Assembly (NCBI GenBank): GCA_934085565.1
Contig: CAKOHG010000003.1
Location: 112,247-176,246, forward strand
Direction: 5' to 3'
DNA length: 64,000 nt
DNA from: an uncultured Bacilli bacterium
GTDB lineage: Bacteria > Bacillota_I > Bacilli_A > RF39 > UBA660
How positions within the stretch are numbered: position 1 is the first letter of the stretch; each line of letters opens with the position of its first letter. A program made the position numbers and the translations under genes. Shown here piece after piece: positions 10,183 to 11,280 of the stretch. A model generated the notes under the pieces. That model searched no databases. It was not told where the DNA came from and saw only the letters and a list, made by a program, of their open reading frames with translations.

Positions 10183-11280
10183 ATGAACATAAAAAAATAC
10201 ATTCCAAATATACTAACAAGTTTAAGGCTTATTTTAACGCCAATTATTATTTATTTAGGATTAACAGATCATTATAAAGTTTTAATAGGACTTGCAATCG
10301 TGACCGCTTTAACAGATTCTGTAGATGGTTATTTAGCACGTAAATTTGATGCAACTTCGGAGTTAGGAGCTAAATTAGATGCGATTGCTGATAAAAGTTT
10401 AGCCATTGGTTTACTCATTATCTTAATTATTAAAAAGAAGAGTTTCTTTTATGTGCTTGTTTTAGAATGTCTTATTGGCTTACTTAATTTATATTTTTAT
10501 TTTAAAAAAGGAGTTGCCGCTTCTTTATTAGTCGGCAAATTTAAAACTTGGATAATATTTATTACCATTATCTTAGGTTTTGTTGGTTTAGTAGTCCCAC
10601 ATTTTAATGTTGACATTTTTATTTATATTACAGTCTTTTTACAGATTATTACTTTACTAAGTTATTTATATTATGGTTTAAAAACTAAAAAGCCTAAAAA
10701 AAAAGACTTCGGTAACGAATATTTAGAATATTATCAAATTGTAGAACCTATTTTATTAGAAGCAGAAATGCAAAAAAGAAAGACATATGCTCATCATATA
10801 AATGAATCGGTTTATGCCCATGTTTTAAGAGTAAGTTATGATTGTTATCGTATCGGAAAACGGTTTCATATGGATTATAAAAGCTTAGCTATTGCCGGTT
10901 TATTACATGACTTTTATGAACATCCTTGGCAAGAAAATAAAGTGAAAAAACCATTTTTACAAAATCATGCTTTTACCCATGCGAAAGAAGCTGTTGTAAA
11001 TGCTAAAAGAGTTTTTGGGGAAAGTGTGGTTACGCCTAAAGTAGAAGAAATTATGATTACTCATATGTTTCCGGTTAATAAAAGAATTCCAAGAAGTAAA
11101 GAAGCTTGGCTAATCACTTTAGTAGATAAAGCAGACTCTATTGATTTTATAATGCATCCGATTGCTTTATATAAAATATTCTTCCGTAAAAGATTAGAGC
11201 AGGAACATGAAAAGATGATTAAAAAAATTAAAAGAAGTATCAACGCGAAAATTAAAAAGATGGAAAAAAAGGAGAAATAG
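10183..11280 (+). CDS. CDP-alcohol phosphatidyltransferase (PgsA-like) fused to a C-terminal HD-domain phosphohydrolase
   Basis: N-terminus NILTSLRLILTPIII...DSVDGYLARKFDATSELGAKLDAIADK (the D-G-x2-AR...G-x3-D-x3-D CDP-OH_P_transf signature) with about 6 TM helices. C-terminus HVLRVSYDCYRIGKRFH...LLHDFYEH (HD motif). Confidence 0.7.
   Translation: MNIKKYIPNILTSLRLILTPIIIYLGLTDHYKVLIGLAIVTALTDSVDGYLARKFDATSELGAKLDAIADKSLAIGLLIILIIKKKSFFYVLVLECLIGLLNLYFYFKKGVAASLLVGKFKTWIIFITIILGFVGLVVPHFNVDIFIYITVFLQIITLLSYLYYGLKTKKPKKKDFGNEYLEYYQIVEPILLEAEMQKRKTYAHHINESVYAHVLRVSYDCYRIGKRFHMDYKSLAIAGLLHDFYEHPWQENKVKKPFLQNHAFTHAKEAVVNAKRVFGESVVTPKVEEIMITHMFPVNKRIPRSKEAWLITLVDKADSIDFIMHPIALYKIFFRKRLEQEHEKMIKKIKRSINAKIKKMEKKEK

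Follow-up and report, generated by a model that had tools for sequence, protein, structure and literature searches.

Why should an enzyme of phospholipid head-group synthesis be joined, in one polypeptide, to a hydrolase of the HD superfamily? The question is raised by a gene at positions 10183-11280 (+ strand) of a 64,000-nucleotide stretch of DNA, hereafter the window, from an uncultured Bacilli bacterium of the gut (GenBank contig CAKOHG010000003.1, positions 112,247 to 176,246). As noted in a preliminary description of this DNA, the gene is a single open reading frame (ORF) of 365 aa, starting with ATG. Pfam searches bear out the layout proposed there, a cytidine diphosphate (CDP)-alcohol phosphatidyltransferase at the N-terminus and an HD phosphohydrolase at the C-terminus. 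The fusion is a new, unannotated combination of known parts, in which a transferase resembling PgsA, the phosphatidylglycerophosphate (PGP) synthase, is followed by an orphan HD hydrolase. We tentatively read the product as a bifunctional, membrane-embedded enzyme that would both synthesize PGP and remove its phosphate, a reading to which we give somewhat less than an even chance.

The fusion is real, and widespread. In a search space of 5.8 billion proteins, relatives of the fusion fall into 221 clusters, at 52-98% identity, and both Pfam domains are present in 120 of 120 among the matches listed. The only names found on those clusters are 'CDP-alcohol phosphatidyltransferase family protein [Candidatus Ventrenecus stercoripullorum]' and 'HDIG domain-containing protein [Bacilli bacterium]'. 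GTDB genomes, one for each species, were scanned with a profile of the HD domain, and at least 574 species carry a relative of it. The best 80 loci were classified, and all derive from metagenome-assembled genomes (MAGs) assigned to uncultured Bacilli, Tenericutes or Erysipelotrichaceae, Candidatus Ventrenecus and Candidatus Fimihabitans. Adding the window and two further loci, 55 loci are fused and 28 host a standalone HD gene; the distribution of fused versus separate genes, proposed as a check in the preliminary description, thus reveals a conserved fusion. Nine residues of the transferase half (D45, D48, G49, A52, R53, G62, D66, D70 and K71) and nine of the HD half (H204, H205, H213, H242, D243, H262, H266, H294 and D315) are invariant in 46 diverse members, and both halves are under purifying selection. 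The gene is present in single copy, at a conserved housekeeping locus.

An artefact, due to mis-assembly or to two genes being read through as one, could be suspected because 8 of some 57 species representatives have the two halves called as separate ORFs. The probability of this is negligible, and the artefact reading is refuted: 14 contigs from independent samples encode the very same 365-aa product, and the split frames overlap in every case at a run of 9 to 11 A residues in the linker, where the HD frame is open and has no start of its own. The eight split loci, which comprise seven GTDB species representatives and locus L016, identical in sequence to L050, are all interrupted by a +1 or -1 frameshift at this run; in L016 the junction maps at 6510-6535. 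The possibility that they are genuine two-gene operons was considered and rejected, because the HD frame runs open across the junction without a start codon. Given this lack, and the overlap of the frames at the A-run, the split loci are frameshifted fused genes. The frameshift could be a sequencing error, or a true slippage or phase-variation site uncoupling the HD domain from the transferase. In the window the run counts nine A residues (10696-10704), and is in frame.

The transferase half (10183-10674, residues 1-164) matches the Pfam family CDP-OH_P_transf (PF01066) over residues 6-155, with an E-value of 5.9e-22 and 79.1 bits against a cut-off of 22. The signature singled out in the preliminary description, DSVDGYLARKFDATSELGAKLDAIADK, corresponds to residues 45-71, and residues 45-70 fit the motif of CDP-alcohol transferases, D-x2-D-G-x2-A-R-x8-G-x3-D-x3-D, exactly. 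The multiple transmembrane helices also claimed there number six in the AlphaFold2 model (residues 3-27, 31-54, 60-84, 88-109, 116-137 and 144-167). Among NCBIfam models, pgsA (TIGR00560) scores best, at 71.3 bits, followed by actinobacterial ClsA (44), E. coli-type PgsA (39), PssA (23.5) and PIPS (22.6). S. aureus PgsA is the top match in a sequence search of the PDB (E 3.1e-7; PssA is at 0.33), and the top four Foldseek matches are all S. aureus PgsA structures (7DRJ/7DRK), at 27% identity and a template modelling score, normalised to the target, of 0.64-0.67. The early claim that this domain is PgsA-like therefore holds, the domain grouping with PgsA and not with PssA, PIPS or ClsA. In S. 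aureus PgsA the 3'-phosphate of PGP is bound by the conserved residues K83, R110, R118, K137 and Y181, and T138 contacts the 2'-OH (PMC8640168). By alignment, three of the five phosphate ligands (K83, K137 and Y181) are kept in the fusion as the invariant residues K71, K121 and Y161; T122, the equivalent of T138, and the GKxKT motif, which reads GKFKT at residues 118-122, are also retained and invariant. A large subfamily of PgsA-like proteins of 170-230 aa lacks an HD domain; its members, eight of which were aligned, are found in varied contexts, and some of them end in an acidic C-terminal tail. A 168-aa ORF located 5' of one of these, P0290, was tried as an HD partner, and rejected, as it does not encode an HD protein.

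The HD half spans residues 181-335 (10723-11187). The match to Pfam HD (PF01966) covers residues 210-318 (E 7.2e-8, 33 bits against a cut-off of 22), and the segment LLHDFYEH, picked out in the preliminary description, lies at residues 240-247. H213, H242-D243, H262/H266, H294 and D315 make up the full residue set of dimetal HD phosphohydrolases, within an all-helical fold; H204-H205 are invariant besides the metal-site residues. No GYP motif is present in the 365-aa protein. The preliminary description had conceded that its proposal would fail if the N-terminal domain were closer to other CDP-alcohol transferases, or if the HD domain lacked catalytic residues or were of the HD-GYP type; because the former groups with PgsA, and the latter has intact metal residues and no GYP motif, neither situation is encountered here. 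Profile comparison of the HD half with sequences of solved structures retrieves at best YqeK-type diadenosine tetraphosphate (Ap4A) hydrolases, with E-values of 0.003-0.07 and over the H...HD segment only. On the YqeK model (TIGR00488) the fusion scores 14.2 bits, and its standalone homologues 19.8-22.3, against a cut-off of 70.15. NCBIfam assigns to standalone members a generic HDIG domain only, HD-GYP structures are generic fold neighbours only, and no match to the PgpA, PAP2, HAD or PTP families was found in the fusion protein with Pfam or NCBIfam. The HD half is thus best described as a distinct, uncharacterised subfamily of the HDIG class, remotely resembling YqeK.

Relatives of the HD domain are found in other settings. 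The existence of standalone homologues, anticipated in the preliminary description, is confirmed by proteins of about 165 aa in sister lineages. A profile search retrieved 1,382 proteins, the best being HD-only proteins of 157-200 aa, at about 50% identity. In about 20 GTDB species the standalone gene occupies a fixed slot in the order dnaA / rnpA - yidC - jag - [HD] - mnmE - mnmG - rsmG. This slot, between jag (KhpB) and mnmE, is close to oriC in uncultured Bacilli (L011 6001-6489; L014 6001-6504; loci L073 to L097). B. subtilis is not known to have a gene between jag and mnmE. Elsewhere the HD gene is followed by two PF06541 genes, with overlapping stop and start codons, in two species (L098 7986-9764; L099 6366-8299), or lies between a DUF1003 gene and a gene for an RsmI-like methylase, again in two species. 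HMMER searches of 1.84 billion representative sequences yielded 2,487 matches at E-values up to 0.001, and 1,361 at E-values up to 1e-10. Judged by length, roughly one in four of the top 150 representatives is a protein of 390-430 aa carrying the HD domain at its C-terminus, and in all eight proteins sampled an N-terminal PF06541 domain (ABC_trans_CmpB/TMEM229) precedes it. One 895-aa protein (P0441) combines PF06541 and HD with B12-binding and radical-SAM domains. The pairing of an HD domain with a B12-radical-SAM enzyme recalls OxsA and OxsB, of oxetanocin synthesis. Nothing relevant was found in the literature on the function of PF06541. A human member of the family, TMEM229B, has been associated with choline-plasmalogen ratios in genome-wide association studies (GWAS; PMC12393746). 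A neighbour-joining tree of the HD domains gathers the 28 standalone sequences in a single clan, with none of the 55 fused ones in it, a topology compatible with one fusion event. No assembly appears twice among the best 80 loci, which is weak evidence that fused and free forms replace each other. Because the standalone clan excludes the fused sequences, and no assembly recurs among these loci, the data would fit one orthologous function, performed by either a free or a tethered domain.

What might the two halves do together? At the cytoplasmic face of the membrane, the N-terminal domain would move a phosphatidyl group from CDP-diacylglycerol onto glycerol-3-phosphate, yielding PGP and cytidine monophosphate (CMP). 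The HD domain, held by a tether of about 10 residues at the cytoplasmic end of helix 6, would stand beside the side of the transferase site through which the acceptor enters; there, its His/Asp-bound metal centre would hydrolyse the 3'-phosphate of PGP, releasing phosphatidylglycerol (PG). This hydrolysis would render the pathway irreversible. That the acceptor is glycerol-3-phosphate, and that PGP is the substrate of the HD domain, is what we infer. Both termini of the transferase domain are cytoplasmic, as judged from the order of helices in the model and the alignment to S. aureus PgsA, and the 16-residue stretch after helix 6, a Lys-rich linker (10675-10722, residues 165-180), contains six Lys or Arg residues, so that the HD domain and the active site of the transferase lie on one and the same side of the membrane. 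Y161, near the linker, corresponds to Y181 of S. aureus PgsA, a residue lining the entrance for glycerol-3-phosphate. The fact that the HD family has been repeatedly joined to integral membrane proteins, those of PF06541, points to a membrane-bound substrate for the putative hydrolase. Dephosphorylation of PGP is the step which directly follows PgsA (PMC11804483).

Several observations weigh against the joint synthesis and dephosphorylation of PGP. The fusion misses the TIGR00560 equivalog cut-off, set at 109.1 bits, and the positions of S. aureus R110 and R118 are occupied by L94 and N102. The same two Arg replacements are found in unfused relatives (35-50% identity), which score 68-78 bits on the pgsA model; they therefore denote an 'LE...N' subfamily of PgsA-like proteins, and not a change linked to the fusion. 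As the Arg ligands are replaced and the score is below the cut-off, the acceptor may be other than glycerol-3-phosphate. The PgsA assignment of the preliminary description consequently stands for what concerns the nearest family, and falters at the level of the equivalog, where two of the five residues that contact the phosphate of PGP in S. aureus are replaced. The full-length AlphaFold model has a predicted template modelling score of 0.50 and a low-confidence linker, hence the geometry of the two domains is uncertain. All the structural neighbours of the HD domain act on nucleotides, dinucleotides or RNA/nucleic acids, and the standalone HD genes reside amid the RNA-related genes of the rnpA-yidC-jag-mnmE-mnmG-rsmG region, not amid lipid genes. 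To our knowledge, no enzyme of the HD superfamily dephosphorylates a phospholipid, and no paper on a PgsA-HD fusion, or on a PGP phosphatase of the HD type, was found in the literature searched. Moreover, Firmicutes already have an enzyme for the conversion of PGP to PG. The HAD protein PgpP/YqeG was reported in January 2025 to be essential for this step in B. subtilis; it serves as the essential PGP phosphatase in S. aureus as well as in B. subtilis, can rescue E. coli mutated in pgpABC, and its conservation extends to most Firmicutes and Mollicutes, a further phosphatase class being suggested for Actinobacteria, Chlamydiae and Rhizobiales (PMC11804483). The view, taken in the preliminary description, of a poorly defined PGP phosphatase in most Firmicutes has therefore been overtaken by the identification of PgpP/YqeG, and, because PgpP fills the gap, the fusion is of lower value as a missing Firmicute enzyme than was assumed there. 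A tblastn search with B. subtilis YqeG as query gave no match in 1.26 Mb of loci plus the window, a set that covers two genomic regions only and is uninformative on the absence of the gene.

Other functions may be envisaged. The N-terminal domain may be a paralogous transferase using another acceptor, either a phosphorylated polyol or sugar, or PG itself, in this case making cardiolipin; the HD domain would then trim a different phosphorylated head group, or play an unrelated role. We regard this as unlikely. The hypothesis would account for the low scores of the whole subfamily, fused or unfused (68-78 bits against the pgsA cut-off of 109), for the substitution of L/x-E...N for (A/S)RE...LR of S. 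aureus PgsA, at positions which are evolutionarily conserved (PMC8640168), for the varied contexts of unfused members, and for ClsA being the second-best NCBIfam match. Yet, there is no variation in the GKxKT motif, K71 and Y161, which are typical of the pocket that binds glycerol-phosphate in PgsA; with a single exception among the proteins scanned, pgsA leads all other models by more than 20 bits; and the low scores could reflect a composition of 28.6% GC, the value measured in the window. The 84 kb surrounding the fusion gene, a small sample, contain no other PgsA-like gene; S. aureus PgsA, used as tblastn query, found no second PgsA-like match in the 1.26 Mb of loci and the window, which span two genomic regions only. 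Similarly, no HAD, PgpA, PAP2 or pgsA gene is present in the 10 kb added on either side of the window.

The HD domain may alternatively work on the nucleotide side of the reaction. It could be a CDP-diacylglycerol pyrophosphatase resembling Cdh, releasing phosphatidic acid and CMP in the control or proof-reading of liponucleotides, or a CMP 5'-nucleotidase removing an inhibitory product. A likeness to YqeK would be in tune with this, but is confined to the H...HD segment, at 14-22 bits against a cut-off of 70; destroying the substrate on which the transferase depends would be futile, Cmk normally takes care of CMP recycling, and the recurrent PF06541 membrane partners would be left unexplained. 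Such a role is improbable in our opinion, to about the same degree as a change of acceptor. A further hypothesis is that the HD domain is an RNA or signal-nucleotide enzyme placed at the membrane, such as an RNA-end phosphatase or nuclease, or a hydrolase of alarmones or cyclic dinucleotides, with the transferase and PF06541 domains serving as anchors or being regulated by it. The location of standalone genes in the oriC cluster might be taken as a hint in this direction, but many housekeeping genes of unrelated function keep their place in that neighbourhood. An enzyme of six helices with an intact catalytic site would be an unusual anchor, Pfam detects no KH, OB or other RNA-binding module, the HD-GYP motif is missing, and the models of PgpH and RNase Y score below threshold. 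We hold this hypothesis to be the least probable of the three.

Comparison with known systems helps to define what is new in the fusion. With S. aureus PgsA (7DRJ/7DRK; TIGR00560) the N-terminal domain shares the six-helix fold, the exact motif, the equivalents of K83, K137, T138 and Y181, and GKxKT; it lacks the insertion that separates helices 1 and 2 on the extracellular side, and a C-terminal HD domain is present in no characterised PgsA. The reaction proposed for the HD domain is catalysed by PgpP/YqeG, PgpA, PgpB, PgpC, Gep4 and PTPMT1, the folds of which (HAD, PgpA family, PAP2 and PTP) are unrelated to HD. In the characterised systems we know of, none of these phosphatases is fused to PgsA. 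PgpA, PgpC and PgpP act at the cytoplasmic face (PMC11804483). YqeK, the symmetrical Ap4A hydrolase (PDB 2O08, 2OGI and 8JJA), can be aligned to the HD domain over H...HD only, and lacks the motifs HHxxES, LHDFYxxPWQ, HxFxHA and HMFPLN of the family; unlike the fusion it is soluble, and encoded in the nadD operon. In PgpH, the 7TM-HD phosphodiesterase of cyclic di-AMP, and in RNase Y, the membrane module is a sensor or an anchor and not an enzyme, and sequence similarity to either protein is not significant. IPCT-DIPPS of A. fulgidus (PDB 4MND), also retrieved in the fold search, sets a precedent, in that a CDP-alcohol transferase is joined there to a soluble enzyme acting in its own pathway. 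In this case the partner is an N-terminal cytidylyltransferase acting before the transferase, whereas in the fusion it is a C-terminal hydrolase, which would act after it.

By extension, the HD domain and its standalone orthologues of about 165 aa, spread in hundreds of gut Firmicute species, might constitute a new class of lipid-phosphate phosphatases, the first HD enzymes working on a membrane phospholipid, which would convert PGP to PG where they are tethered to, or act beside, a divergent PgsA of the 'LE...N' type, and the PF06541/TMEM229 partners would be implicated in head-group metabolism. This broader proposal is doubtful. Were it correct, a further unrelated PGP phosphatase would be added to PgpA, PgpB, the HAD enzymes PgpC, PgpP and Gep4, and PTPMT1, at an essential step of membrane biogenesis, and the HD superfamily would be extended to lipid substrates. 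An orphan family of large size, with relatives in at least 574 GTDB species and 2,487 matching representative clusters, would receive a function; its genes lie beside core genes in uncultured gut Bacilli. It would also offer a first handle on PF06541/TMEM229, the human member of which is linked by GWAS to ether-lipid levels (PMC12393746). Interest would rise sharply if PgpP were missing from the present lineage and the fusion were its only PgsA. Even if the proposal is wrong, the fusion couples phospholipid head-group synthesis to a YqeK-like nucleotide hydrolase, an association that calls for an explanation.

The signals around the gene can be outlined as follows, all being on the + strand. 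A hairpin followed by a T-run, resembling a terminator (10009-10036), closes the upstream VirB4-like gene and sets the fusion gene apart from the block to which that gene belongs. The interval 10098-10182 is shared with related species, homology with L021 starting at 10098, and plausibly contains the promoter. A GGAGG ribosome binding site (10166-10170) lies 12 nt 5' of the ATG. At the other end, the coding region terminates with a Lys-rich C-terminal helix, the length of which differs among homologues, and the stop codon (11188-11280, residues 336-365). A second terminator-like site, the hairpin TGCAAACGTGGTTTGCA and a T-run (11281-11310), separates the gene from ftsK (11320-13587), which encodes, as called, a protein of 755 aa with alpha, motor and gamma domains. 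In a mechanical list of ORFs ftsK starts at a TTG at 11293, inside the hairpin and T-run, and gene callers choose the ATG at 11320; the latter agrees better with the presence of a terminator between ftsK and the fusion gene. Given the terminator-like hairpins at both flanks, the fusion gene possibly represents its own transcription unit, and may be transcribed alone.

In distant fused homologues the gene order is SSB - RNase J - DUF2383 - [fusion] - FtsK, the last encoding alpha and gamma domains. The ftsK gene is always found directly 3' of the fusion, save for one intervening gene in some species, and RNase J and DUF2383 precede it wherever the upstream flank is covered and has not been displaced; the small DUF2383 (PF09537) gene separates RNase J from the fusion in most fused species (L005 7473-7922; L007 7476-7922). 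Genes resembling those for conjugation take the place of RNase J and DUF2383 in the window, as they do in L020, which represents this species in GTDB. This block of the type IV secretion type (540-10010), directly 5' of the fusion gene, includes genes for a 710-aa membrane protein (5212-7344), a TraC-like protein (7660-8229) and a P-loop ATPase of the VirB4/TraG type (8226-10010), as well as several ORFs without Pfam matches. Nucleotide homology with a related species of the RNase J-DUF2383 arrangement begins at 10098 in the window, and the block looks like a mobile-element insertion or replacement. A match to MnmE found 3' of the fusion in L070 was examined as a possible relic of the fusion event, and discarded: it is weak (34%), 6 kb away, and does not correspond to the jag-mnmE junction.

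As to the host, the window has a low GC content and encodes MraY and a penicillin-binding protein with PASTA domains, and a SpoIVA gene resides 10 kb upstream of it (L102 3599-5077). These features identify a walled, low-GC member of Bacillota, probably able to form spores. Relatives carry SpoVS or Coat_F genes (L005 1313-1573; L018 7541-7849); sporulation genes thus occur in this lineage or its relatives despite small genomes (one circular MAG measures 1.31 Mb) and the label 'Tenericutes' attached to some of the MAGs. An ORF for an IS30-like transposase, with HTH_38 and rve integrase domains, sits among housekeeping genes of the window at 55095-56141.

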